Assembly (NCBI GenBank): GCA_036172245.1
Contig: JAYWIR010000011.1
Location: forward strand, 496,001 to 560,000
Direction of reading: 5' to 3'
DNA: 64,000 nt
Source of the DNA: Raillietiella orientalis
Taxonomy: Eukaryota
Numbering within the stretch: the stretch's first letter is position 1; the number at the start of each line of letters is the position of its first letter. The notes under the pieces are model-generated. The model saw only the letters and a list, made by a program, of their open reading frames with translations, was not told the origin of the DNA and searched no databases. Made by a program: the position numbers and the translations under genes. Positions 7,625 to 64,000 of the stretch are shown here, one piece after another.

Positions 7625-8280
7625 TTTTTCACCCGGATAAGCCGGGGCGTTTATTTTCAAAATTACACATAATTTGTTATATTTAAATGTAGTCTTTTGG
7701 GCACTGCTTCTTATAGGACACATGGTTCTGGCAGTGTTTTTTTGCTTCTCCTTACCGACCCGCTGGCCGGTGTGGTACTCTCCACGGGCGAAAGGGACGG
7801 GAAAACCAAAAGAAAAAAAAGCTAAAACGCCCGGGAGACAAAGTTGTATGGGGTGGGGAGGGATGGGATGGGATCACTGCTCGCCGGGAGAAGTCCTTGC
7901 CCGCATCCGGTTTCGGATGCGGGCAAGTGCCGGTGGAATTGCCCTTAACCGGCGCCATGGCATGCCTTCTCCATGGAGAGGACTGCCCAATGAATGGCGT
8001 TCCGGCTTCTACGTCCTCTCCTCGATGCATCCCCACTTCTCCAGTATTCCGCATATGCAGCAGAGGACTGCAACACACGCGGCTGCTCGCAGGGCGTTCC
8101 GCATCAGGAGGCGACGGAAAAGGTCGTTTGGGTCGCCAGCCGGAATGTTCAGGATCGACGGCAGTCGATTCCACATGGGGCGGAGGGCGACACAGTCAAC
8201 TAAAAGGTGCGGGAGGGATTCCCACCCCCCACACCTGGCACACTTCCCCGTGTCCCTGTGTCCCGAGGACAGAACGTGTT
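7625..8280 (-). mobile_element. 5'-truncated L1/Tx1-like element, family A
   Basis: LMRNALRAAACVAVLCCICGI matches VRDALPPASALAALCCLRGI; T-rich UTR; terminus AATAAACGCCCCGGCTTATCCGGGTGAAAAA at 7655-7625. Confidence 0.8.
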
Positions 8281-10240
8281 CGGCGTGCCGGTAAGGCGCG
8301 GCATCCGGCAGGGCGACAGCCTGAGTCCCCTGCTCTTTAGCACCTATTTCGAACTGGTGCTGAGAGCATACAAAGTGACATTGGCTGCCCTGCCGAGCTC
8401 GTGCCCAGGTACGCCGGCCGTGTAGGCGTATGCTGACGATCTTCTGCTCCTGCTGCCCATGTCCGCCCCGGCCTCGGCAGTCGAGGATTTCTTCGACTTG
8501 CTGAGCCGTGGAACAGGACTACGGGTGAACAGGACGAAGTCGTCGCTGGTAGCAGTTGGTGCAACGTGGGCAGGACGACCTGATTGGATCCGCCTGGGGA
8601 TCCCCACGGAGAGGTACTTGAAGTACCTCGGCGTTCCGTTGGGGGACTTCTACCAGTCAGAAGCCCGGTCAGGTCGTCTCCAGAAAGTAAAGTCGGCGAT
8701 CGGCCCGTTCCTGGAAGGCAAGTTTCACTTGCCGGAACGGGCCGCGATGTGGAACGCGTTCGCGGCCCCCCTCCTTCGCCCCCTGCTTTTTGTTTGCCCC
8801 GTACCCCGTGAGATGAAAAAAAGAACAAAGGACCTCCTGCGCATCGCCCTGTGGGGCGGCGGGGGGCCTCGTGTGCCGCTGGAGGATTTGTGCGCTCCAC
8901 ATCGGGACGGAGGTCTTAGCGTCCTGACGCTGGAGCGCGTGGAAACACAGCTGCGGTCGCGTACCCTAGCCATCGCGGCGAAGATCTGGAGCACCCCTTG
9001 GTGCGTTCCGGCCCGCCTCCTCGCCAGACGTGTGTCCGGGACTGAAGGACTCGCGTCTTTTCTTCTGTGCCCCGGCCGGAAAATAAGAAGATGCGGACTT
9101 CTCCTGGGACGCATGACCACCCTGGCAAAGGAGAACGGCTGGATGGCCTGCAGCCCCGCCAACTCGAGCGCATGGCTGGAAGAAACAGTTGGAACGTGGG
9201 CAAAGTTAAACCAGCCTAGTGGAGAATCCTGGAACCGCCTGCGTCCCGGCATCTACACCCGCTGCACGCTGCGGAACATGATCGAGTGTCCCACCAGAAG
9301 CACTTGGGCGGAGACGACCCCACTGGCCACGGCGCTGCCCTTCCTACGAAGGGCGCTTCAAAACAGCCGGAAGCCGAGGTGGCAAGTCACCTGCCGGATA
9401 GCGGGCAAGGAGAAGGATTTAAGTGGGTGGACCATGAGGGAACTGGCAGACGCCGCGACCCCAAGCGTTGTCCCGCGAGGAATCCAGAGATGGGGCGAGC
9501 TGCTTGGCATCCCGGTGGATGACCTAAAGTGGCCCCCGTTGTTCAGAGACGCATCCACCTTCCCCCTCAAGTGGCAGGAAACGGCGCTGCTGCTGCTGCA
9601 CTGGGGTCTTCCCTGCGACGCGCGCCCCCCACCACTGGACGTTGGGGAAGGTGGGACAGAACTGTGCAGTGTGCGGGGAGAAGGAATCCCTCCCCCACCT
9701 GTTAGTGGACTGCGCTGCTCTCCGGCCCTTGCGGGAACGTTTTGCTACGACCCTCCGGATGCCGGTCGGCAGCCCCCCCAGAGACGTTGTACGCCTCCCC
9801 TTCGTGCGAGATGCCCTGCCACCAGCCTCAGCCCTGGCAGCGCTCTGCTGCCTCCGAGGGATTGTGGCAGCGTGGAGCGCAGCCAACAGAGGAAGCAGCG
9901 ATAGGGACGCCATCCTACACGTGGGTCGCTACCTGCGAATCGCGATCGGCTGGTCCCATCTGGGAGCAATGCAGAGGGACCTCGAGGGCATCCTGGAAAG
10001 GATGGTCTCTTCCTCCAGAGGGCTGTGATCCCCTCCCGCCCCCCCAAATAGTTTCTTTTTTTTTGTTTGTTTCATTTATTTTTGTTTTTGTTTTACCCCC
10101 TATCCCCTCCGCTGCCGAGGAGAGTCAAGCCGGAGTCAGAACCGGCTTCCTGGCAGGTCCCATGAACTATTGGCTGTAGAGAGGCCTAGTACCGCAAATG
10201 TAAATTGTTTATTAATAAACGCCCTGGCGTGACCCGGTGG
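8281..10240 (+). mobile_element. 5'-truncated L1/Tx1-like non-LTR retrotransposon, family A (best-preserved copy)
   Basis: RT motifs GIRQGDSLSPLLF, YADDL, GLRVNRTKS, KYLGVP; LCAPHRDGGL; Zn-knuckle CAVCGEKESLPHLLVDC; stop at 10028; T-rich UTR; AATAAA plus GC-rich end at 10214-10239; one in-frame stop and a frameshift. Confidence 0.92.
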
Positions 10241-10280: not shown

Positions 10281-10450
10281 GCCGCCCGGATACGCCGGGA
10301 CGTTTATTTAAACTCTTGCATGGTCAATACAACACGTGGTACAAGGCCCCACTAACGGTCAGCATCGCGCCGGACCTGACGGGACAGCGGTACGCAGTGC
10401 AGCGTGACTCTCCTCATCAGTAGAAGGGGAAGGGGGAAAAACCAAAAAAG
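10281..10450 (-). mobile_element. Isolated family A LINE 3' UTR and terminus, fused to viral Rep
   Basis: T/C-rich tract followed by AATAAACGTCCCGGCGTATCCGGGC, the same terminal motif as other family A copies. Confidence 0.75.
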
Positions 10451-10894
10451 TGGGTGTTATTCTTGAGAATGTACAGTTCATCGGCACCATTCTCGATAAG
10501 TTGTGGTATCTGGAAAGAAATGTGTTGAATATAATGAATGCAGCAGTTAGCGTACCTGTTCTTCGTAGCTCTTGGCTTCAGCTTGTTCGGAGAGTGCATC
10601 GTAAACCCAAGCATCTTTGTCCTGCTTGGTGCAGTACCTAATGTTGCTCTGAGCAGAGCCTTTGGCTTTTTCCAGATGGCATTTGTGAAACGGTTTCCTG
10701 CGGAGTCCTGGTAGTGTTTTCGGTCCCTTTAGCTGAAAGTATCCCTGTAGGCGCGGTGTGCCAGTTTCAGCTGTTTCTTTGCCAATGCAGGCAAAGATGC
10801 AGTTACAGCGGCACCACTGTTTTATCGCCTTGAAGTCGTCTTCACTGTAGTTACAGAGAGTGAGGCACCAATTGAAAAATGGTGCGTACGGCAT
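10451..10894 (-). pseudogene. rep: Endogenous CRESS virus Rep, copy 1 (HUH endonuclease domain and start of exon 2; truncated)
   Basis: Motif I WCLTLCNY, GKE..ETGTPRLQGY (motif II region), HLEKAKGS, motif III YCTK; GT-AG intron 10555-10510; exon 2 IPQLIENGADELYILKN. Confidence 0.93.
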
Positions 10895-10985
10895 CGTGCG
10901 TGTACTCGGTAATTCACTGGAAGTAAGACTATGGTGCGGATGTAACTGGTGGCTTATGTACTGGCTAACTGCGTAGTTTTGTTGA

Positions 10986-11017
10986 GCGCAGTCTGGTCAG
11001 TATTACCCAGATTGCGC
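10986..11017 (+). promoter_or_regulatory. CRESS rolling-circle origin stem-loop, copy 1
   Basis: GCGCAGTCTGG-T-CAGTATTAC-CCAGATTGCGC: 11-bp stem with one G-T pair and a NANTATTAC nonanucleotide at 10998-11006. Confidence 0.92.
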
Positions 11018-11308
11018 GGCAATCATCCGGCACCGTGGGAAATTGTTGTGTACGTATGTTTATCTATGGTGTTCGGTTTTTGTCCGCCTACGTGGAAGAC
11101 TTGGGAATGCGGAAAAGCGGTTTGCTTTCAGCCGGAGGGCGTCTGGTGAAACCCGACCTCGTGGAAGACTAGAGGAGTCGGGTGGGCGTGGCCCACCAGC
11201 TGAAGTATGAAAGGGAGCGGGGAAAGGAAAATACGTCAGTGGGCTATCTAGTAGGCGAATGTCCACAGCGGGTCGGTTTGCTTCTCGAAAAAGGGAAAGG
11301 TGGATCGA

Positions 11309-11508
11309 ATGGCGTGTTATCGAAGAGGCGTAAGCTGACCAGATTGCGCTGGGGTTACGGAGCATTCGAGGGTCGCCGTCGTTTTCGCGTCGTGCGCAAC
11401 CCACGTCGGAAGTTTGCGAGGGCTTTGCGTGTGGTGGAGCGATCGGGCGTGGCTGGAGCAACGCACTATGCGTCGCGAAGAACGGCTGACCACGATCCAG
11501 TAAACTGA
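11309..11508 (+). pseudogene. Putative CRESS capsid N-terminus, copy 1 (frameshifted, truncated)
   Basis: ATGGCG then Arg-rich KRRKLTRLRW...GRRRFRVVRNPRRKFAR, divergent from rep across the ori; same position as in copy 2. Confidence 0.65.
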
Positions 11509-11544
11509 TCTTGGATGTTTTTGTATAAGGAGGAGGTCGCGTCT

Positions 11545-13250: not shown

Positions 13251-14079
13251 GTAAATCTGTGCCCCCTGTTTGAGTGAATGCGTTTTGTAGTATGAATGGA
13301 AAAATGAATTTTCCCACCCTCGAGGTACTGGAAAAAGCGTGGTTCTTCTATTCGAATGATCTATCCCAGTAATTTTTTACCTGATCGTTCTGAAACCGTG
13401 ACGGTAGTTGTAGAAAACGAAGAGGTGGGAGATCGGGAACAATTTGTTGCTTCCGAATGTTGTTCTAGGAAACTGCATCCAACGATTTGGCTATTGTCGC
13501 GCTTAAGTTCCTTGGTTACCATGCCTTCATTATTCTACAAGCGTGTTGCATCACCTTTTTTTTTTTACAGCTTGTTAGATGGCGTGTGCCGTTCTTCAGG
13601 TAGTTTAAAAATAATGGGTTGGTACAACATGTTAACTTGCCTGCTGCTCCAGGTTGATCCAGAGACCGCATCAGGTTTCTTGGATGTGGGGGTTCTTCTA
13701 TATTCAAGCGTGCCCGGTTGCCATTTTTTGACTTGAAAGTTTTCTAGAGGACTGGAAGTGTTCGTTCTTTGCCAAGGTTCTTTGCCCTTTGAGAAAGTTC
13801 ACTGTTCTTGAGGTACTCGGATTCGTTAGTGGAATTATTCACTCGGAAACTCCTTCCTGCGTCATGCCTCACGCTTCGGTTTCTTAGTCTGGGTGCAAGG
13901 AATCTCTTGATGGTTCCATGGAAACAGGATTTTCTCTGTTGCAGAACAACTGTCTGTCTGCAGGACTTTCTCTGTCCTGGGGCAGCGGATAGAATTTGTC
14001 CTTAGATTCTTCTGGACGAGCTACTGCCAAGGATTTTCCCTTAAGAACTGGCATTCCCCACGAATGACAGGATCCGGGT

Positions 14080-18699: not shown

Positions 18700-19690
18700 C
18701 CATGACGGAGAACAGATCGTCGTCGTAAGCAAGGTGGGCCGTGGTCTCCCCATTCCAGGATGGGACCCTTGACTCCGTCTCCCTCGCCCGCGTTGGCGAT
18801 CTTGTCGCTACGGTCTCCGCTCATGGTACCAAGCATTGCGGGTTCGAACCCCTCCCTTCCCCCCTCGCGGAGGATCGAGGTCAAGCATAGGGGTGTCGTG
18901 GGTTTTCGAGTCCCTTCCCCTCCTTCGCCTCCCGGATGATGTTGGTTGGCCTGCAGGTTTCGGCTGCGGCGCAGGTGGAAACCAGATGTCCCCATCGACT
19001 GGTCAGGATGGGGGAGTTGACCCTCTAGTCTTCTTCCAGGAATCAAGGATCCGATTTTCTTGGGTTTTCTCCCTCCAGTTGTGAAAATGGAGCTGTATTT
19101 TCTCCCTCCGGGGTGGACCCTTCTTCGCGTTTCCTGAGGCTGGTTGATACCTCCCTCGGAGGGCTGCCTCTCCAGAGTGCGAGTCTCTTCGTGGAGCGAT
19201 CCTTTGAAAAATTGGGAAGCGTCCCTTAGGGGTTCTCTTCAGAGGAGGAAACAAGGAGCAGTTCCCTCGAGGGTTTCCTCTGGAGAAGAAACGAGTGCTT
19301 CCCCTCCGGGGGCTCCCTCCAGAGAGAATGAGGAAGCTAATGTCTGCCATGGAAATCATGAGAAGATTGATCCATAGGGGAATCAACATTAGGAACAGCG
19401 GACGAATCCCATTCTGGACTTATGGCTACATCTTGAGGAAGACTGAGAATACTGCCCAGGAGTCTGCAATGTCCAACATTCTTTAGTGACCGGATCCCGG
19501 AGACATAAGCTTCGGATTTGAGTAAAAAAAAGTGACAGTGCATCGAATGACAACCTGCGATTGCATAATGTGCACAGCACGACAGACACCCGTACCATGC
19601 TCGAGCGACAAAGATACCAGTTTTCCTCAGTCCGACAAGAGGTGGGGTGATTTTACTTAATCCACGTGCATACAAAAGCGATTACAAAAA
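18700..19690 (+). mobile_element. Degenerate family B non-LTR element with 3' UTR
   Basis: GINIRNSGRIPFWTYGYILRK then TAGTGACC, as at 30805; 5' boundary approximate. Confidence 0.7.
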
Positions 19691-19877
19691 CGCAATACAC
19701 CCAAAGAACATTCTAAGTGGTTTACTACTCTTTTCACTCAATTCAACGTTTTAGTTTGCAAGGGATTAAATAAAATCACCCCACCTCTTGTTGGACTGGG
19801 GAAAACTGTGGTATCTTTGTCGCTGGAGCATGGTGGGGTTGTCTGTCATGCTGTGCTCAGTATGCAATCGTAAGGTT
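19552..19877. repeat. About 120-bp inverted repeat (arms 19552-19673 and 19754-19877)
   Basis: Arms share CGATTGCATA, AGCGACAAAGATACCA and CAAGAGGTGGGGTGATTTTA in opposite orientation. Confidence 0.9.
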
Positions 19878-25849: not shown

Positions 25850-27349
25850 TTTCGCATCTAAAGGGAATGCCCGACAACCTGCTACCAGACACTCAGAAAG
25901 GGCGCAGACGATCTGCTGCTGCTGCTCCCCGTGTTCACCCCGGCGTCTGCACTTGAGAGCTTCGAGTTTCTCATCCCCGGAACGAGCTTGAAAGTGAACA
26001 GGGAGAAGAAGTCTTCCTTGATCCCAGTTGGGGTGGCGTGGGCAGAATGACCGCACTGGATTCGCTTGGGGATCCCCACGGGCGGGTGATTGAAGTACCT
26101 TGGCGTTCCGTTGCGGGTCTTCTGCGCTGCAGAAGCCTGATCAGACTGTCTTCAGAAGGACGAGCAGGTGCTCGGTTCGTTCTAAGGAGACGGATTCCAC
26201 TTGCCGAAACGAACCGCGGTGCGGAACACTTTCGTGCCTTTTCTCCTTGGCATCCTGCTTTTTGATTGCCTTCCACCGGAGAGCATCAGAAAGCTGACGA
26301 ATGACTTCCTTAGGATCCTTCTTCAGAGCAACGGGAGGTCCTGAGTCTGCCTGAAGGATTTGTGTGCTATCGGGACAGCGGCCTCGGCCTCCTGACGCTG
26401 GAGGAAATGGAGCTTCAGCTCCAATTTCGGATCCTGCGCACCTCCTCGTCCGGCAAGCCACCATCAGCGAAGGGTTGCATCCTTTCTTACTCGTCTCCCA
26501 CTGCAAACTGCAGCTCCAGCGCGTGGCAACCTCGACAACACCTGACATTCATGGCACCTGGATCTCCTGCCGTCCTGTGAACGGTACTGTCTGGCTGCAG
26601 GAAACCATTCGCACGATTCGCAGGTGGACGAGGAACCAAGAGCGATGCCCGGAACAGGTGCAGCGATTCCTGTATGCGCCTTACAACAGCTGCTCTCTTC
26701 GGGAAATCCTTGAACATCCCGAGAAGAGCGCGTGGGCAGGTAGAACTTCCCTTGCCGCAGCGCTGCCCTCCCTGAGGGAACACATAGGCAGCAACCTTCC
26801 GGCTAGATGCAAAGCCTCCATGGAAATGTCCGACAGGAGTAGAGCACTGCGTGACTGCAAGAAGGGTCAGCTTTCATACACTGTGACCCCGAGTGCCTCA
26901 CCTCGAGGACTTCTGTGCTGGGGCAGGCTGCTGGATATTTCGCAGGAAAGTACTACAATGGTTTCTAGTACTTTTGGGCACTCACACCCTCCCTTAAAGT
27001 CGCAGGAGTCGGCGTTGATTCCCCTGAACTAGGATCCTCTTTGCAACGTCCACCGTTAGACCCGAGGGTATGTGAGTCCGAACTTTGGCAGATGTGGGCG
27101 CGTGAATCCCTCCCGCACCAACTTGTGAATTGTGTTGCCCACCAGTCCAACACTTTTCCTCGACTTTAATAAGCCTTCAATGACCTTCAAGGACGCTTTC
27201 AGACCCTCCCTCGTGCGCGACGCCCTCGGTCAGCAGCCTTGCTAGGATCTCTCTGCCGCCTACGTGGAACGAGGGCGATGCAAGAGGGGCCCGAACGACA
27301 GGTGTGCCACATCCACTTTGTCGTCCGCTTCATGAGGATGGGAACAAGA
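25850..27349 (+). mobile_element. Family A LINE, 5' part (interrupted by CRESS genome)
   Basis: ADDLLLLLP, LKVNREK, KYLGVP, RDSGLGLLTLE, LAAALPSLR, ESLPHQLVNC align to 8281-10240; frameshifted. Confidence 0.88.
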
Positions 27350-28009
27350 TTTTTGCAGGAGTGCACGTAGATTGCTCCTCTTTTTAGATATGAGTATTTC
27401 GCCACGGTTGTCTTGCCGGCGTTTCCAATGGTGTCGTAGTACGAGTATATTTGTCATTCGCTGGCAGGTTTGCGAATGACGTCAAAGAGGTCCATTGTCC
27501 ATTTGTCGAAGGTTGGCGGGTGGGTTTGAATGAGTTCTATTTCTTGATAGGCGAAAGCATTCCTTGATGAACTTGATATCGCGTGAGCAGAATTTTGCAT
27601 GGTTTTCCAAAATAAATGTTTCGTCTGCGCCTGCTTTAATGAGTTCGACTACCTAAAAAGGGATGGCGTTAGTTGAGAGAGGAGGTTAATTGGACTCACT
27701 TCCGTTCGTAATCATGCCGAATGTCCAAGCTTGTTCATCCTCCTTTGTGCAGTACCTCAAGTTGCTTTGTGCGATGCCGCGACTCTTCTCCAAGTGGCAC
27801 TTCTGGAAGGGCTTTCTGTGCAGCCCTGGCAGAGTGCGTGGCTCCTTTAACTGCCCTTGAAGAAGACGCGGAGTGCCGGTTGTTGCAGTTTATCGTCCAA
27901 AAATGCAGAACCTGCACTTGGTGCGGCACCAGCATTTGATTTTTCGAAAATCGCCTTCGGAGTAGTTGTTCAATGTGACGCACCAATTGAAGAAGAGTCC
28001 GTAAGGCAT
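27350..28009 (-). pseudogene. rep: CRESS Rep N-terminal part, copy 2 (HUH domain, intron, Walker A)
   Basis: MPYGLFFNWCVTLNNY, TGTPRLLQG, HLEKSRG, YCTKED; intron 27699-27653; YYDTIGNAGKTTVAKY (Walker A at 27426-27409); frameshifts and stops present. Confidence 0.9.
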
Positions 28010-28089
28010 CGTGGAATTCACCGATGGTATGACTGTGGATCGGTGCTGGTAGGTGGTTTATATACGCCGGAAGTGAGTAGTTTGTGGCG

Positions 28090-28121
28090 CAGCAGTCTGA
28101 TGAGTATTACCCAGATTGCTG
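28090..28121 (+). promoter_or_regulatory. CRESS origin stem-loop, copy 2
   Basis: CAGCAGTCTGA-T-GAGTATTAC-CCAGATTGCTG; nonanucleotide at 28102-28110; TATATAAA on the minus strand about 50 nt upstream of the rep ATG. Confidence 0.88.
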
Positions 28122-28326
28122 TAAACCGATCCGGTTGGAAGTTGCAAAGATGTATTTTTAGGAAGTGGTCTGTCAAGTCCGAGATCGCGAAGGACTTACG
28201 CGGAAAGCCTGCAGGCTTACCAGATGTTTCCGCTGGTGAAATCCGACCTCGTGGAGGGCTTGGAAAGTCGGATGGGCTCCGCCCACCAGCCACCAAATAG
28301 ACAAGGGGAGAGGGGATAGGTGAAAA

Positions 28327-28505
28327 ATGGCGGTACGCTGTCAATAGCAGCAGGATGGAAGCGCCTCGCCGGTTTTCTTCTCGTAAACGAAGAAGTGTTT
28401 AAGAAGAGGCCTGCAGCTAAGCGTCGGCTTTTGCATAAATTTGGTTGTGATGCGCGTAAGCGTAGGCGTCGGTCCAACGCAAGAAGAACAAAGTCGTTGC
28501 TGTCG
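28327..28505 (+). pseudogene. Putative capsid Arg-rich N-terminus, copy 2
   Basis: ATGGCG in the same context as copy 1; RFSSRKRR and KKRPAAKRR...ARKRRRRSNARRTK across frameshifts. Confidence 0.6.
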
Positions 28506-29361
28506 CCAGGATGAACCAGGGACCACCAGAGAAGTTGAAAAGCTGCAGAGGAAAACACTATGGGGGCATTATCGCCCAAGAGTACGGTTAAAACCCCTGT
28601 GTCATCCCAGGGAAGAGGGCGGTTCCGGGATGAAGTCGCTTGCACATTCCATGGAAATCATGGATTCACGACACATCCTGAACATCACTACTCACTGGGA
28701 TGACTGGCCGTACGCGGCGCATAGGGCCTACGCGTTGTTGAACAACTCGACAGGTCTGATGACTGCGCTGCTAGGCCGAGCAAGGGAATGGATCAACATC
28801 GACCCCAGATGGAGGGGAAAACAACGGTTGGTGCGAAAGCACAAGATCAAGATCGTGCCAAGAAGCAGGGAGCTCTGGCAGGATGAATCCATGCTGGTGA
28901 TCCCGTGGATGCTTCCGGTCCCTCCTGACACGAGAAGCTGGATCTACCAGCGGCCCAGAGTTACCCTGCAAAGAATCCAGGAATGGCAACGAGGAGGATA
29001 CCTACATCCCACTCGTATACTTCGGTATATAGAGATGATGTTAGGTAGGTTTACCCACAAGACTCGCGAAGTATGGAAAAACCACGACTTCGCGTGGTCC
29101 AGGGCAACCAAGATGAACTACCGAAGAATTTTCAAAGAAGGGGAACAAGATACCAGTGCCCTCCAAGAAGCTGCCGATCGCTACGGATCAACCTGTTAGC
29201 GATCGGCACGATGCTCTGGAGGAGTGACCTACCACCGGACACCCAGGACAACCTCCTGATGTTCTATCATGGAGGAATCCTGAGCGGGTCCAGATTGAAG
29301 CATTTTACTGGAAGACGGGATGACGAAGACTGCAAAGCGTGTGGCGACATTGACAGTGTAC
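28506..29361 (+). mobile_element. Internal fragment of family B non-LTR ORF2 inside the viral capsid gene
   Basis: LCHPREEGGSGM (L1/Tx1-type motif), WIYQRPRVTL, knuckle CKACGDIDSV; homologous to 12170-13250; no 3' UTR. Confidence 0.82.
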
Positions 29362-29669
29362 GATGGTATCAAAAGGGTATACTGTATTGAGTTAAAGGTT
29401 TGCCAACTGGGAAGAGTGTAAAGTATCCTTGGCTGGATAGTGGCGAGGAAAGCGGCCTGGATATGGAAATGAAAGTTCAGATAGGGTTCAGCCGTGTACA
29501 TGTAATGAAGCATATGTCTGGAGTTGATATATCAGATGAGCTGAAAGACGGTTGTTCCCGAGGTGTGTGTCCAAAGCAAGGGACATTGAACAAAGGTTAT
29601 CCTGTGTATAGAGTAACGAGAAAACTCTATCTGGAATCTAAACAAACGAGAGACGTTGGGTTTTATTGA
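29362..29669 (+). pseudogene. Putative capsid C-terminal part, copy 2
   Basis: Non-LINE frame WYQKGILY*VKGLPTG...MKVQIGFSRVHVMK ending convergent with the rep stop; assigned mainly by position. Confidence 0.5.
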
Positions 29670-29792
29670 CTGATGTGGCTATTGATGGGAGACAAAGTAC
29701 TTATTAAAGAGTCAGGGGCTCGTTCTGTTCTAGGGCTTGAAGAACAAGCCCATGGAAGAATGGCTCCTTCCTCATTCATTGTCCAATGGGTG

Positions 29793-30045
29793 TTATGTTT
29801 CTGCTCTTGCAATATTCTTGATAACCCATCTGTCACTGGACATCTTGGAGTAGTCAGGTTCCCAGTTTGCGAAGATGATGATGTGGGGAACAGCAAAGTA
29901 CTTGATTGTACCTTGATATTTGGAGTCGAATACAATTCCATTTTTTAGACTCTCGATGAAGCCGTACCTGACGTGCTCTTGGCTGTCCCGAGTTACGTCA
30001 ACAACGATGATCAGCTCGCCGTTATAGATGTGGGCAGCGTCTTGT
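29793..30045 (-). pseudogene. rep: CRESS Rep C-terminal SF3 helicase part, copy 2
   Basis: QDAAHIYNGELIIVVDVTR (Walker B), YGFIESLKNG..SKY, PHIIIFAN (motif C), SDRW; resembles nanovirus/alphasatellite-like and related unclassified CRESS helicases. Confidence 0.92.
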
Positions 30046-30331
30046 TCCCACTCTGGAGAATATGCTAAGTGAACTTGCCTGCATCCTCGAAAAGAAACAG
30101 AGGACTGCCCCTGGCAGAACGTGATCCCTTCCTGCATCCTCCCAAGTGTATTAATTTTTTTATTTTTATTTCTGCTTCTTTTTGTTTGCTCCCTCCCTCT
30201 GCTGCCTTTGCGGACCTCACCGGTCTGTTCACCGACAACTTGGCAGAATCCTTTGAAAATTGACGTGTTTGGACCATCGGTCCAAAGACGTCAATTTCAC
30301 CCGAGTACGTCCCGGCGTACTCGGGTGAAAA
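30043..30331 (+). mobile_element. Family A LINE 3' end (continuation of 25850-27349)
   Basis: TCCCAC..GAACTTGCCTGCATCC..GTGATCCC, T-rich UTR, terminus CCCGGCGTACTCGGGTGAAAA. Confidence 0.85.
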
Positions 30332-42129: not shown

Positions 42130-42447
42130 ATGACCAATAGTTCGAAGTCTAGGTCTCCTAGACCAATTCCCTTGTATTTATGGACAACGTCAGATGTGTT
42201 GAAGTGGTTTCAGCGAAGGTGTTCCGAGTACTTTGTCTTATATGGAAAGTATCTTCTGGAGCATGAAATTAACGGGCAGGCACTTATGAAAATGAATGAA
42301 CATAGTTTACTATTGCTAGGTATCACAAATGAAATCCATAAACAAAATATCTGGAGAGAAATTCTGAAACAACGTCTTAAATCGGATATTTTAAGTATGA
42401 AAAATATTGAAAGCAAACACTATGATAATGTTATTAACCTTGAATAG
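42130..42447 (+). CDS. ave: Aveugle/HYP SAM-domain protein (SAMD10/12 family)
   Basis: Single-exon 105-aa ORF: PRPIPLYLWTTSDVLKW..HEINGQALM..LGI..IWREILKQRLKSDI. Confidence 0.85.
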   Translation: MTNSSKSRSPRPIPLYLWTTSDVLKWFQRRCSEYFVLYGKYLLEHEINGQALMKMNEHSLLLLGITNEIHKQNIWREILKQRLKSDILSMKNIESKHYDNVINLE

Positions 42448-57107: not shown

Positions 57108-60100
57108 ATCTATGGAAAGCATGGTATCTTGAAGCATTCTCGTCATCATTATCTTTCCAGGGACTTTCGGAAACTAAATCTTCTAATCCCGATTTGGCTG
57201 TTGGGACGCTATCAAAATTAGAAGCCGAAGGTTCGAGACTGGTACTTCTGAACGACTCCCTAGTGAACACCGGAAATCTGAAACCAGTTTCAAAACCTAA
57301 ACACAGTTTGCCAACATCCCCTTCCTGAAAGCAACCTTTGAGACAGCGAGGGTCGCTGGAATTCACAGAACACACAAACTCTGTTGTGGTTTCACGAACA
57401 ACAGATGGAATAGCTGTAGAAGTAAAACAACGGGCATCAGTAGATCCAGGGAAGCAAACAGGAGGACACTCAGGATCCGATGAACCAGGAATGCAACGAG
57501 AAGTAAACGCAGATTCAACAGTAGGAGTCCTAAAAATTTGGGAGGAAGTAGTAGTAACCGTTACAGGCGTTCCACGGCATCGGATGTCCTTAGATCCGGG
57601 ATGGCAGACCAATGGAGAGGAAGGTGTGCGTCGAGTGGTGGTCAGTGTGGCGATCGGACAACGCGGATCAGGAGAACCCGGGTAGCAGAAGGGCGGACAT
57701 CTGCTGTCAGTCGACCCAGGGTAGCATCTAAACGACGTGGTTGTCCTGGGCGTAGTGGGGATTCTAGGGAATCCCTGTTGACATCTGGGGTCCGTGGATC
57801 CAGGAACGCAGCGGAATGGGGTGACGATCGATGGAGTGGTGCTTGACGTGATTGTGGCTGGGGCTTCTGTTGAAGGTGTGGGTGTACTGCAACGGACGTC
57901 TGTTGATCCCGGTACGCAGAAGAATGGAGCGGACAGTGTGCGTCGAGTGGTGGTCAGTGTGGCGATCGGACAGCGGGGATCAGGAGAACCAGGGTAGCAG
58001 AAGGGCGGACATCTGCTGTCAGTCGACCCAGGGTAGCATCTAAACGACGTTGTTGTCCTGGCCGTAGTGGGGATTCTAGGAAATCCCTGTTGACATCTGG
58101 GGTCCGTGGATCCAGGAACGCAGCGGAATGGGGTGACGATCGATGGAGTGGTGCTTGACGTGGTTGTGACTGGGGCCTCTGATGAAGGTGTGGGTGTTCT
58201 GCAACGGACGTCTGTTGATCCCGGTACGCAGAAGAATGGAGCGGACGGTGTGCGTCGAGTGGTGGTGACAGTGGCGATCGGACAGCGCGGATCAGGAGAA
58301 CCAGGGTAGCAGAAGGGCGGACATCTGCTGTCAGTCGACCCAGGGTAGCATCTAAACGACGTTGTTGTCCTGGCCGTAGTGGGGATTCTAGGAAATCCCT
58401 GTTGACATCTGGGGTCCGTGGATCCAGGAACGCAGCGGAATGGGGTGACGATCGATGGAGTGGTGCTTGACGTGGTTGTGGCTGGGGCCTCTGTTGAAGA
58501 TGTGGGTGTTCTGCAACGGATGTCTGTTGATCCCGGTACGCAGAAGAATGGAGCGGACGGTGTGCGTCGAGTGGTGGTCAGTGTGGCGATCGGACAGCGG
58601 GGATCAGGAGAACCAGGGTAGCAGAAGGGCGGACATCTGCTGTCAGTCGACCCAGGGTAGCATCTAAACGACGTTGTTGTCCTGGCCGTAGTGGGGATTC
58701 TAGGGAATCCCTGTTGACATCTGGGGTCCGTGGATCCAGGAACGCAGCGGAATGGGGTGACGATCGATGGAGTGGTGCTTGACGTGGTTGTGGCTGGGGC
58801 CTCTGTTGAAGATGTGGGTGTTCTGCAACGGATGTCTGTTGATCCCGGTACGCAGAAGAATGGAGCGGACGGTGTGCGTCCAGTGGTGGTGACAGTGGCG
58901 ATCGGACAGCGCGGATCAGGAGAACCAGGGTAGCAGAAGGGCGGACATCTGCTGTCAGTCGACCCAGGGTAGCATCTAAACGACGTGGTTGTCCTGGCCG
59001 TAGTGGGGATTCTAGGGAATCCCTGTTGACATCTGGGGTCCGTGGATCCAGGAACGCAGCGGAATGGGGTGACGATCGATGGAGTGGTGCTTGACGTGGT
59101 TGTGGCTGGGGCCTCTGTTGAAGATGTGGGTGTTCTGCAACGGATGTCTGTTGATCCCGGAACGCAGAAGAATGGAGCGGACGGTGTGCGTCCAGTGGTG
59201 GTGACAGTGGCGATCGGACAGCGCGGATCAGGAGAACCAGGGTAGCAGAAGGGCGGACATCTGCTGTCAGTCGACCCAGGGTAGCATCTAAACGACGTGG
59301 TTGTCGTGGCCGTAGTGGGGATTCTAGGGAATCCCTGTTGACATCTGGGGTCCGTGGATCCAGGAACGCAGCGGAATGGGGTGACGATCGATGGAGTGGT
59401 GCTTGACGTGGTTGTGGCTGGGGCCTCTGTTGAAGATGTGGGTGTTCTGCAACGGATGTCTGTTGATCCCGGAACGCAGAAGAATGGAGCGGACGGTGTG
59501 CGTCGAGTGGTGGTGACAGTGGCGATCGGACAGCGCGGATCAGGAGAACCAGGGTAGCAGAAGGGCGGACATCTGCTGTCAGTCGACCCAGGGTAGCATC
59601 TAAACGACGTGGTTGTCCTGGCCGTAGTGGGGATTCTAGGGAATCCCTGTTGACATCTGGGGTCCGTGGATCCAGGAACGCAGCGGAACGGGGTGACGAT
59701 CCTTGGAATGGTGCTTGCCGTGGTTGTGACTGGGACCTCTGTTGAAGGTGTGGGTGTTCTGCAACGGACGTCTGTTGATCCCGGTACGCAGAAGAATGGA
59801 GTGGACGGTGTGCGTCCAGTGGTGGTGACAGTGGCGATCGGACAGCGCGGATCAGGAGAACCAGGGTAGCAGAAGGGCGGACATCTGCTGTCAGTCGACC
59901 CAGGGTAGCATCTAAACGACGTGGTTGTCCTGGCCGTAGTGGGGATTCTAGGGAATCCCTGTTGACATCTGGGGTCCGTGGATCCAGGAACGCAGCGGAA
60001 CGGGGTGACGATCCTTGGAATGGTGCTTGCCGTGGTTGTGACTGGGACCTCTGTTGAAGGTGTGGGTGTTCTGCAACGGACGTCTGTTGATCCCGGTACG

Positions 60101-63100
60101 CAGAAGAATGGAGTGGACGGTGTGCGTCCAGTGGTGGTGACAGTGGCGATCGGACAGCGCGGATCAGGAGAACCAGGGTAGCAGAACGGTGGACATCTGC
60201 TGTCAGTCGACCCAGGGTAGCATCTAAACGACGTGGTTGTCCTGGGCGTAGTGGGGATTCTTGGCACTTCCTGTAGACACCTGGGGTCCGTGGATCCAGG
60301 AACGCAGCGGAATGGGGTGACGATCGATGGAGTGGTGCTTGCCGTGGTTGTGACTGGGGCCTCTGTTGAAGGTGTGGGTGTTCTGCAACGGACGTCTGTT
60401 GATCCCGGTACGCAGAAGAATGGAGCGGACGGTGTGCGTCGAGTGGTGGTGACTGTGGCGATCGGACAGCGCGGATCAGGAGAACCAGGGTAGCAGAAGG
60501 GCGGACATCTGCTGTCAGTCGACCCAGGGTAGCATCTAAACGACGTGGTTGTCCTGGCCGTAGTGGGGATTCTAGGAAATCCCTGTTGACATCTGGGGTC
60601 CGTGGATCCAGGAACGCAGCGGAACGGGGTGACAATCGTTGGAATGGGGCTTGCCGTGGTTGTGACTGGGGCCTCTGTTGAAGGTGTGGGTGTTCTGCAA
60701 CGGACGTCTGTTGATCCCGGTACGCAGAAGAATGGAGTGGACGGTGTGCGTCCAGTGGTGGCGACTGTGGCGATCGGACAGCGCGGATCAGGAGAACCAG
60801 GGTAGCAGAAGGGCGGACATCTGCTGTCAGTCGATCCAGGGTAGCATCTAAACGACGTGGTTGTCCTGGGCGTAGTGGGGATTCTTGGCACTTCCTGTAG
60901 ACACCTGGGGTCCGTGGATCCAAGAACGCAGCGGAATGGGGTGACGATCGTTGGAGTGGTGCTTGCCGTGGTTGTGGCTGGAGCTTCTGTTGAAGGTGTG
61001 GGTGTTCTGCAACGGACGTCTGTTGATCCCGGAACGCAGAAGAATGGAGCGGACGGTGTGCGTCGAGTGGTGGTGACTGTGGCGATCGGACAGCGCGGAT
61101 CAGGAGAACCCGGGTAGCAGAAGGGCGGACATCTGCTGTCAGTCGACCCAGGGTAGCATCTAAACGACGTGGTTGTCCTGGCCGTAGTGGGGATTCTAGG
61201 AAATCCCTGTTGACATCTGGGGTCCGTGGATCCAGGAACGCAGCGGAACGGGGTGACGATCGTTGAAATGGTGCTTGCCGTGGTTGTGACTGGGGCCTCT
61301 GTTGAAGGTGTGGGTGTTCTGCAACGGACGTCTGTTGATCCTGGTACGCAGAAGAATGGAGTGGACGGTGTGCGTCCAGTGGTGGTGACTGTGGCGATCG
61401 GACAGCGCGGATCAGGAGAACCAGGGTAGCAGAACGGTGGACATCTGCTGTCAGTCGACCCAGGGTAGCATCTAAACGACGTGGTTGTCCTGGGCGTAGT
61501 GGGGATTCTTGGCACTTCCTGTAGACACCTGGCGTCCGTGGATCCAGGAACGCAGCGGAATGGGGTGACGATCGATGGAGTGGTGCTTGCCGTGGTTGTG
61601 ACTGGGGCCTCTGTTGAAGGTGTGGGTGTTCTGCAACGGACGTCTGTTGATCCCGGTACGCAGAAGAATGGAGCGGACGGTGTGCGTCCAGTGGTGGTGA
61701 CAGTGGCGATCGGACAGCGCGGATCAGGAGAACCAGGGTAGCAGAACGGTGGACATCTGCTGTCAGTCGACCCAGGGTAGCATCTGAACGACGTGGTTGT
61801 CCTGGCCGTAGTGGGGATTCTAGGGAATCCCTGTTGACATCTGGGGTCCGTGGATCCAGGAACGCAGCGGAATGGGGTGACGATCGCTGGAGTAGTGCTT
61901 GCCGTGGTTGTGACTGGGGCCTCTGTTGAAGGTGTGGGTGTTCTGCAACGGACGTCTGTTGATCCCGGTACGCAGAAGAATGGAGTGGACGGTGTGCGTC
62001 CAGTGGTGGTGACAGTGGCGATCGGACAGCGCGGATCAGGAGAACCAGGGTAGCAGAACGGTGGACATCTGCTGTCAGTCGACCCAGGGTAGCATCTAAA
62101 CGACGTTGTTGTAATGGCCGTAGTGGGGATTCTTGGCACTTCCTCTGGACACCTGGGGTCCGTGGATCCAGGAACGCAGCGGAATGGGGTGACGATCGAT
62201 GGAGTGGTGCTTGCCGTGGTTGTGACTGGGGCCTCTGTTGAAGGTGTGGGTGTTCTGCAACGGACGTCTGTTGATCCCGGTACGCAGAAGAATGGAGCGG
62301 ACGGTGTGCGTCCAGTGGTGGTGACAGTGGCGATCGGACAGCGCGGATCAGGAGAACCAGGGTAGCAGAACGGTGGACATCTGCTGTCAGTCGACCCAGG
62401 GTAGCATCTGAACGACGTGGTTGTTCTGGCCGTAGTGGGGATTCTAGGGAATCCCTGTTGACATCTGGGGTCCGTGGATCCAGGAACGCAGCGGAATGGG
62501 GTGACGATCGCTGGAGTAGTGCTTGCCGTGGTTGTGACTGGGGCCTCTGTTGAAGGTGTGGGTGTTCTGCAACGGACGTCGGTTGATCCCGGTACGCAGA
62601 AGAATGGAGTGGACGGTGTGCGTCCAGTGGTGGTGACAGTGGCGATCGGACAGCGCGGATCAGGAGAACCAGGGTAGCAGAACGGTGGACATCTGCTGTC
62701 AGTCGACCCAGGGTAGCATCTAAACGACGTTGTTGTAATGGCCGTAGTGGGGATTCTTGGCACTTCCTCTGGACACCTGGGGTCCGTGGATCCAGGAACG
62801 CAGCGGAATGGGGTGACGATTGATGGAGTGGTGCTTGCCGTGGTTGTGACTGGGGCCTCTGTTGAAGGTGTGGGTGTTCTGCAACGGACGTCTGTTGATC
62901 CCGGTACGCAGAAGAATGGAGTGGACGGTGTGCGTCCAGTGGTGGTGACAGTGGCGATCGGACAGCGCGGATCAGGAGAACCAGGGTAGCAGAAGGGCGG
63001 ACATCTGCTGTCAGTCGACCCAGGGTAGCATCTAAACGACGTGGTTGTCCTAGCCGTAGTGGGGATTCTTGGGAATCCCTGTTGACATCTGGGGTCCGTG

Positions 63101-64000
63101 GATCCAGGAACGCAGCGGAACGGGGTGACGATCGTTGGAATGGTGCTTGCCGTGGTTGTGACTGGGGCCTCTGTTGAAGGTGTGGGTGTTCTGCAACGGA
63201 CGTCTGTTGATCCCGGTACGCAGAAGAATGGAGTGGACGGTGTGCGTCGAGTGGTGGTCAGTGTGGCGATCGGACAGCGCGGATCAGGAGAACCAGGGTA
63301 GCAGAAGGGCGGACATCTGCTGTCAGTCGACCCAGGGTAGCATCTAAACGACGTTGTTGTCCTGGCCGTAGTGGGGATTCTTGGCACTTCCTCTGGACAC
63401 CTGGGGTCCGTGGATCCAGGAACGCAGCGGAATGGGGTGACGATCGTTGGAGTGGTGCTTGCCGTGGTTGTGACTGGGGCCTCTGTTGAAGGTGTGGGTG
63501 TTCTGCAACGGACGTCTGTTGATCCCGGAACGCAGAAGAATGGAGCGGACGGTGTGCGTCGAGTGGTGGTGACTGTGGCGATCGGACAGCGCGGATCAGG
63601 AGAACCAGGGTAGCAGAAGGGCGGACATCTGCTGTCAGTCGATCCAGGGTAGCATCTAAACGACGTGGTTGTCCTGGGCGTAGTGGGGATTCTTGGCACT
63701 TCCTGTAGACACCTGGGGTCCGTGGATCCAGGAACGCAGCCGAATGGGGTGACGATCGTTGGAGTGGTGCTTGCCGGTTTTGGCTGGGGCTTCTGTTGAA
63801 GGTGTGGGTGTTCTGCAACGGACGTCTGTTGATCCCGGAACGCAGAAGAATGGAGCGGACGGTGTGCGTCGAGTGGTGGTGACTGTGGCGATCGGACAGC
63901 GCGGATCAGGAGAACCAGGGTAGCAGAAGGGCGGACATCTGCTGTCAGTCGATCCAGGGTAGCATCTAAACGACGTGGTTGTCCTGGGCGTAGTGGGGAT
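57108..64000 (-). CDS. Giant exon of a mucin-like Cys/Thr/Pro-rich extracellular protein, papillote-like; partial gene
   Basis: ORF over 2200 aa with CxPGSxDxRC modules and Thr-rich linkers; ends RYHAFHR at a GTGAGT donor (57107); no ZP domain visible in the window, so family identity is tentative. Confidence 0.75.
57590..64000. repeat. Coding tandem repeat, 312-bp (104-aa) unit, about 20 copies
   Basis: Antisense ORFs recur at exact 312-bp steps (57794, 58106, 58418...); four Cys-pair modules per unit. Confidence 0.98.

Follow-up and report, generated by a model that had tools for sequence, protein, structure and literature searches.

The window, the whole stretch of 64,000 nt analyzed here, carries two degraded copies of a viral Rep gene, each with a short GT-AG segment between the endonuclease and the helicase part. 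This raises the questions of whether the segment is a real intron, whether it belonged to the virus, and whether its size points to the host, as had been proposed in an earlier note on this DNA. From a comparison of the copies in the genome, the best overall explanation is very probably a real viral intron in an ambisense ssDNA virus lineage that was captured repeatedly in the germline as DNA.

The first copy lies at 10447–11544, next to a retrotransposon remnant:

8204–9904, plus strand: flanking remnant of a non-LTR retrotransposon (RT), with a YADD motif and a weak Pfam RVT_1 match (E 0.013)
10447–10509, minus strand: remnant of Rep exon 2, ~21 codons, ended by a retrotransposon-like 3′ tail
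10510–10555, minus strand: intron, 46 nt, GT-AG, phase 0 on both sides (from the sequence and the same site in other genomic copies)
10556–10894, minus strand: Rep exon 1, 113 codons, HUH endonuclease with motifs I–III and linker (Pfam PF02407 Viral_Rep, E 8.2e-13)
10986–11017, plus strand: origin stem-loop with CAGTATTAC at 10998–11006, on the strand opposite to Rep (DNA fold)
11290–11544, plus strand: capsid gene remnant comprising the 5′ end with its Arg-rich arm, oriented divergently from Rep (tblastn)

The Rep reading frame starts at 10894 on the minus strand, and its first exon extends to 10556. The intron proposed for this copy was recovered exactly, with 46 nt from 10555 to 10510, GT-AG ends (GTACGC...TTTCCAG) and phase 0, and exon 2 opens with IPQLIENGADELYILKN at 10509. 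Without splicing a stop codon follows 2 codons past the donor, in agreement with the earlier note, according to which the unspliced frame ends right after the HUH domain. This copy has no helicase because exon 2 runs out after ~21 codons, at a tail that is similar to 10040–10140 of the other strand (blastn). The stem-loop folds with −11.2 kcal/mol (z −4.1, 0/200 shuffles), and the capsid remnant shows 47% identity (E 1e-15) in a tblastn search with the capsid of another copy as query.

The second copy is read as part of an insertion at 27350–30040 (insertion 2):

27352–27652, minus strand: first part of exon 2, disrupted by a frameshift and a stop and reaching just beyond Walker A
27653–27699, minus strand: intron, 47 nt, GTGAGT...CTAAC...TTTTTAG
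27700–28009, minus strand: Rep exon 1, interrupted by an in-frame TAA and lacking the usual last 26 nt at its 3′ end
28090–28121, plus strand: origin stem-loop with GAGTATTAC at 28102–28110 (fold z −2.3, 5/200 shuffles)
29412–29666, plus strand: 3′ part of the capsid gene (tblastn 52–55% identity, E 1e-27)
29793–30041, minus strand: end of the Rep helicase with Walker B and motif C, taken as belonging to insertion 2

The 47-nt segment at 27699–27653 is present as previously described. The claim that both copies are interrupted at the same point stands for copy 1 and for the acceptor of copy 2, which lies at the homologous codon, but not for the donor of copy 2. This donor follows 55 nt past the motif III (YCxK) anchor, compared with 81 nt in 23 of 30 anchored canonical copies; it is 26 nt early and therefore out of phase, which makes the two window copies a poor pair for the argument.

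The two helicase pieces of insertion 2 correspond to exon-2 residues 1–102 (27652–27352) and 105–185 (30041–29793). Because of this coverage, we read 27350–30040 as one circle that would have been opened within the helicase gene, inserted in permuted form and since broken in several places. A retrotransposon-like stretch separates copy 2 from the capsid 3′ end and the last helicase part. The ORF at 29793–30137 was considered as a third copy and rejected; it is read as the far end of insertion 2 instead. The insertion is bounded by a 10-nt inverted pair (27340–27350 and 30040–30050), although the terminal G on the right may belong to the virus. The flanks of the insertion resemble two contiguous parts of a single retrotransposon ORF end, and it thus seems to lie at the center of a short palindrome in a retrotransposon.

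In the 210-Mb genome, at least 116 matches to exon 1 and at least 150 matches to exon 2 were found. We examined 90 loci plus copy 2 of the window, yielding 70 exon-1/exon-2 pairs (rows). Donors and acceptors were placed with matrices built from exon-side letters only; the training set for the matrices was a part of these copies, from which three non-GT rows had been excluded by eye. Of the 70 rows, 22 were left out of the count, five as duplicates and 17, including window copy 2, for low exon-side scores. The earlier note had staked its proposal on splice sites being conserved in further copies, and so they are: the donor is GT in 40 of 48 copies (GT or GC in 42), the acceptor is AG in 43, and both GT and AG occur in 37, while inside the introns GT and AG make up 2.1% and 3.2% of positions. 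Among the 11 copies without GT or AG, some represent donors misplaced by indels (L026, L029, L041) and the rest look decayed.

The 36 canonical introns (within 30–60 nt) come in 13 different lengths from 36 to 51 nt, and in 24 of them the length is not divisible by three. On either side of the intron, the exon distances are nevertheless in frame in 28/30 and 24/25 copies in which the anchors were found. Sequence identity in the interior is 0.50 against 0.48 after shuffling, compared with 0.60 and 0.65 in the exon flanks. The position is thus fixed and the splice sites are conserved, whereas length and interior are free. The most common donor is GTAAGC (14/36); acceptors are CAG (17), TAG (17) and AAG (2). 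A branch-like YTRAY 12–35 nt from the 3′ end shows modest enrichment at best, being present in 23/48 copies versus 16.4 ± 3.3 in shuffled sequences (23 is reached in 13/500 shuffles). Another 47 loci, additional or divergent ones, yielded pairs in 22 cases. By eye, a GT...AG spacer lies at the same site in the most divergent subgroup (L056, L079, L083, L217, L220), and in L207 such a spacer measures 57 nt.

No intron-less (processed) copy was detected among the 70 rows or among the pairs from 22 of the 47 further loci. A search with the exon 1–exon 2 junction pattern gave no exact match in the genome (best rows with one mismatch), and the 10 best loci were without Rep. L058 and L225 have larger deletions and do not join exon 1 directly to exon 2. 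A longer intron of ~160 nt with intact GT and AG ends was noticed in L048 (G000:C18:3626830-3630150), perhaps due to a later insertion, and L060, L064 and L087 have long spacers too.

Taken together, the comparative evidence is strong that the intron is real, and it supports a position-conserved, presumably U2-type spliceosomal intron that came into the genome with the Rep of the CRESS virus. In the infected nucleus, the host spliceosome would remove it; splicing itself we infer from the conserved sites and frame. Its removal would join the nicking domain in frame with the oligomerization and SF3 helicase half to give the full-length Rep (for domain names of PCV2 Rep, see PMC13618890). The intron lies directly after the endonuclease linker, ~78 codons before Walker A.

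Two other readings of the segment have to be weighed. It might be a poorly conserved coding linker, or serve an expression trick such as frameshifting, instead of being an intron. The linker is indeed variable among continuous Reps and 5 of the 36 segments are in frame and stop-free, yet the lengths fall into all three classes modulo 3 (12, 17 and 7 of the canonical introns), stops are common, and GT and AG persist around a random interior. Moreover, where the alignment with continuous Reps is better (P0001, P0231, P0242, P0244; others align poorly), the two exon ends fall on neighboring positions, and the junction comes just past an R-x-D-L element after motif III. We therefore consider a coding linker extremely improbable. 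The second reading keeps the intron and assigns it a use: regulated splicing or intron retention would yield a nuclease-only Rep next to the full-length form, similar to RepA and Rep of mastreviruses or Rep and Rep′ of porcine circovirus. This would suit the position directly after the endonuclease domain and the 31 of 36 unspliced frames that end before the helicase; other CRESS viruses use two-product strategies (PMC13696870, 10.1101/687855), and a bare endonuclease requires no tail. Among the 36 copies, however, 16 stop within the intron, 15 are frameshifted with a later stop and 5 read through in frame, compared with 3.8 ± 1.6 read-throughs expected by chance from shuffled interiors. The stops are scattered from 2 to 171 codons past the donor without a conserved tail, and stops of this kind arise from any frame-breaking intron. 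Since the stop position is not conserved, the functional nuclease-only form that had been proposed is unsupported here, and we regard it as unlikely. Helicase production would need splicing in 31/36 copies, and unspliced RNA would mostly yield nothing useful. The introns of L018, L021, L028, L032 and L089 (36, 42 or 48 nt) are in frame and stop-free, so that gene callers would take them for coding.

What kind of virus carried this intron can be delineated from the copies. Its Rep combines HUH endonuclease motifs I–III (PF02407) with an SF3 helicase, as in Cressdnaviricota, to which its Rep Atlas neighbors belong at 0.97. A profile of exon 1 from 11 copies best matched circovirus-type Rep endonuclease structures (7kii, E 5e-17), while the helicase match to Pfam PF00910 (E 7e-4) was just under the cut-off. 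An origin motif is found upstream in 38/70 rows, and the stems differ among copies yet still pair (by eye). The nonanucleotide NAGTATTAC occurs in 34/70 rows, giving the origin stem-loop typical of Cressdnaviricota. A capsid model from 14 natural pieces, of low to moderate confidence (pLDDT 55), had circovirus capsids as top Foldseek matches (BFDV, E 1e-7). The capsid reached 0.96 in the Atlas, with PF02443 on 14% of members and a recognition score under the threshold; as modeled, it has the single jelly-roll with an Arg-rich arm found in Cressdnaviricota. The genes are ambisense with the nonamer on the capsid strand in these copies. At one locus, Rep is framed by capsid ends with a spacing of 2402 nt, which a circle would give; together with the permuted order of insertion 2, this is an indirect hint of a circular genome. 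The virus would have had an ambisense circular ssDNA genome of ~2.4 kb, with Rep on the complementary strand and the capsid gene and NAGTATTAC origin on the virion strand.

To whom the intron belonged is indicated by the divergence among the copies. Median pS/pN was 0.77/0.28 for exon 1 (pN<pS in 55/55 pairs), 0.83/0.18 for exon 2 (36/36 pairs) and 0.69/0.28 for the capsid (88/88 pairs), and in a wider set pS was below 0.3 in only 3/465 pairs. Because synonymous sites are saturated while amino-acid change is restrained, the copies appear to have diverged as working viruses and to have been captured many times. Such purifying selection on both Rep and capsid argues that many distinct viruses were endogenized and that the intron was theirs. 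The phylogeny of the spliced Rep suggested in the earlier note agrees with this: in a quick tree, 17 endogenous exon-2 pieces formed one clade against 82 database Reps (SH-aLRT 99). As the copies diverged as working viruses and form one clade, we regard the intron as ancestral to the virus clade.

A DNA route of capture, without spliced mRNA as an intermediate, is suggested by the retention of both the intron and an origin that is not transcribed. Many virus genotypes would thus have entered the germline as DNA, often beside or inside retrotransposon remnants, and would have decayed since. Several copies run directly into reverse-transcriptase sequence (RVT_1, E 3e-14 and 2e-20), and a stretch similar to the retrotransposon remnant of the window lies next to another copy (RVT_1, E 3e-14). 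The retrotransposon-like pieces of the window were matched at 24/89 virus loci versus 3/22 control loci, in a test that sees only these families.

We searched for exogenous relatives and found distant ones but no close free-living member. The exon-1 search gave 79 loci, all with ≤45% identity; metagenomes gave at least 14 loci among the matches listed (≤42% identity), and full-length database proteins reached at most 37%. In IMG/VR, the exon-2 alignment yielded no relative (0/199 stretches). Among 93 exogenous loci, 23 have a continuous Rep, 3 have a split one and 67 were not judgeable. L170 has no intron at the corresponding site. Two unclassified free-living CRESS sequences from IMG/VR (L131:320-373 and L137:505-558) resemble the present virus in a GT-AG intron, in their case of 54 nt, in the endonuclease-to-oligomerization linker of Rep. 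They differ in its phase (phase 1), in its position ~17 nt upstream if YQDL is equated with RNDL (an uncertain alignment), and in their separate tree branch at 31–33% identity; this intron was most likely gained independently. The top profile match, P0230, was rejected as a closer relative due to an internally duplicated helicase. This 354-aa protein consists of two tandem CRESS-type helicase halves, is labeled as from a Methylococcales bin, and is probably a viral contaminant or a misassembly.

Among known viruses, cycloviruses share the ambisense layout, in which the nonamer belongs to the strand of the capsid gene. They also have a circovirus-fold capsid and a GT-AG intron whose removal yields the full-length Rep. 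The roach cyclovirus "Rep 1" protein of 105 aa, compared as protein only, ends a few residues before the intron site. Rep introns are frequent in cycloviruses and have been predicted with 166 and 98 nt (PMC12481609) and, in a cyclovirus from dog faeces, at nt 1563–1508 (56 nt; PMC8622408); the former two are longer than the present one, and cyclovirus genomes measure 1.7–2.1 kb versus ~2.4 kb here. The cyclovirus motifs WWDGY, DDFYGW and DRYP, as named in PMC12481609, are absent from the copies. The exon-2 profile gave no match at E≤1 to a solved 314-aa circovirus Rep. The present Rep is mixed, with a circovirus-like endonuclease and a helicase unlike the solved circovirus Rep; its helicase motifs look nanovirus- or smacovirus-like by logos. 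It would work like the spliced Rep of cycloviruses, yet judged by its helicase it is not a member of Circoviridae. Mixed Reps are common (71%) among unclassified CRESS viruses according to PMC5923481, where such groups are described. The groups considered for the present Rep were CRESS4, CRESS5 and Mulpavirales-like ones, among them Anicreviridae; the database Reps that it matched carry no family names.

In mastreviruses, becurtoviruses, capulaviruses, grabloviruses and genomoviruses, splicing likewise gives the full-length complementary-strand Rep. Their Reps belong to another clade and the present virus lacks a conserved RepA-like product. The mastrevirus intron sits further downstream than the present one. 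When looking for membership in the Geminiviridae/Genomoviridae Rep clade, we found only PF02407 and no Gemini_AL1 family, and the unspliced tail is unconserved. In porcine circovirus, a splice donor likewise lies close to where the endonuclease domain ends, but there the unspliced RNA gives the full-length Rep and splicing removes helicase sequence, the reverse of the present arrangement. Splicing of mastrevirus Rep/RepA is treated in PMC13696870, and for geminivirus and genomovirus Rep introns a single origin has been proposed, with a second one in circoviruses (bioRxiv 10.1101/687855). Endogenous circovirus-like elements have been described from crustaceans, 20 in Armadillidium (PMC4231630) and 46 across six species (PMC4573495). 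They have in common with the present copies that many Rep-derived insertions of unclassified CRESS lineages reside in germlines; judged by the published descriptions, they differ from the present genome, which alone has no fewer than 116 matches, often accompanied by an origin and a capsid. Neither paper uses the word "intron" in its main text, and a literature search, thin on subscription papers, found no report of Rep introns in endogenous cressdnaviruses.

The genome carrying the copies is probably that of a crustacean, as an aveugle-like gene at 42130–42447 has six matches to decapods and an isopod (53–57% identity). Five hand-read introns of the host MetAP2 gene in the window measure 40, 42, 43, 49 and 54 nt, and 17 predicted introns of a host myosin gene range from 46 to 120 nt with a median of 56, only short gaps having been examined. 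When distances between donors and acceptors were tallied on host DNA, no peak rose above shuffles. The viral intron, with a median of 46 nt and proposed to be of host-typical size, does fall into the same size class, but the match is weak evidence on the host because unrelated viruses have Rep introns of 54–56 nt. The further proposal that this animal lineage is the true host draws little from size and more from the repeated germline insertion of dozens of divergent genotypes, which is the stronger evidence; from it we infer that the animal lineage was the replicative host.

Two scenarios would relieve the animal lineage or the virus of this role. The virus might have replicated elsewhere, in a parasite, a symbiont or a food organism with short introns, and have come into the germline of the crustacean as a bystander. 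Nematodes and fungi have short introns as well, and the 54–56-nt introns of unrelated CRESS viruses show that size is not host-specific; this reading would, however, require dozens of independent insertions over a long time, and the copies lie on multi-megabase contigs and, in the window, among host genes. We consider it improbable. Alternatively, a virus-derived transposon might have gained the intron once in this genome and multiplied inside it. Such a history would fit the number of matches in 210 Mb, at least 116 for exon 1 and at least 150 for exon 2, which is far above the 20 circovirus-like sequences in Armadillidium vulgare (PMC4231630), and also the failure to turn up an exogenous relative. 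Against it, the capsid is under purifying selection too, close pairs are rare, the ends fall at scattered places with no terminus shared among the copies, and insertion 2 was apparently opened within the helicase gene, unlike a Rep-driven transposon. We give this reading an equally low probability. A Rep-encoding transposon of the Helitron/Replitron type, with shared termini and without a capsid, was rejected on the same scattered ends and selected capsid.

Returning to repeated capture of a virus with its own intron, a more far-reaching version is that an undescribed, family-level lineage of crustacean ssDNA viruses, preserved solely in over a hundred germline fossils, gained a Rep intron of its own, which a host spliceosome tuned to unusually short introns kept at 36–57 nt throughout the radiation of the lineage. 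We put this forward tentatively and doubt that it holds in full. If true, the intron would be an obligatory, host-matched gate on replication, and the length of linker introns could predict the hosts of metagenomic CRESS viruses. In that reading, the linker would have been hit by introns independently at least three times, namely here, in L131/L137 and in cycloviruses.

CRESS-virus Rep introns have mostly been predicted in single genomes by gene finder or by hand (PMC6186406, PMC11463337). In the present case, dozens of independent fossil genotypes allow one intron of this kind to be tested by comparison. They also link an unclassified virus clade with a crustacean host and add one more independent intron gain to the two counted in bioRxiv 10.1101/687855. 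No new mechanism is revealed, as split Rep genes are already known in other CRESS viruses; the clade is undescribed but ordinary-looking and its fossil record is unusually rich. As a warning, ORF-based searches will miss or split the Reps of this clade.

Some further observations concern the surroundings. At least three virus copies per 10–16 kb lie in G000:C68:445000-461000, C40:319000-334000 and C4:41000-52000, which are candidates for small-RNA source loci. In the window, 13463–13753 on the minus strand weakly matches the helicase piece (26%, E 1e-5) and may be a much older or an unrelated helicase remnant. A self-inverted repeat of ~310 nt with 78% identity lies at 19558–19870, and the region 57500–64000, of uniform composition (GC 0.59, GC skew +0.3), is probably a tandem array.
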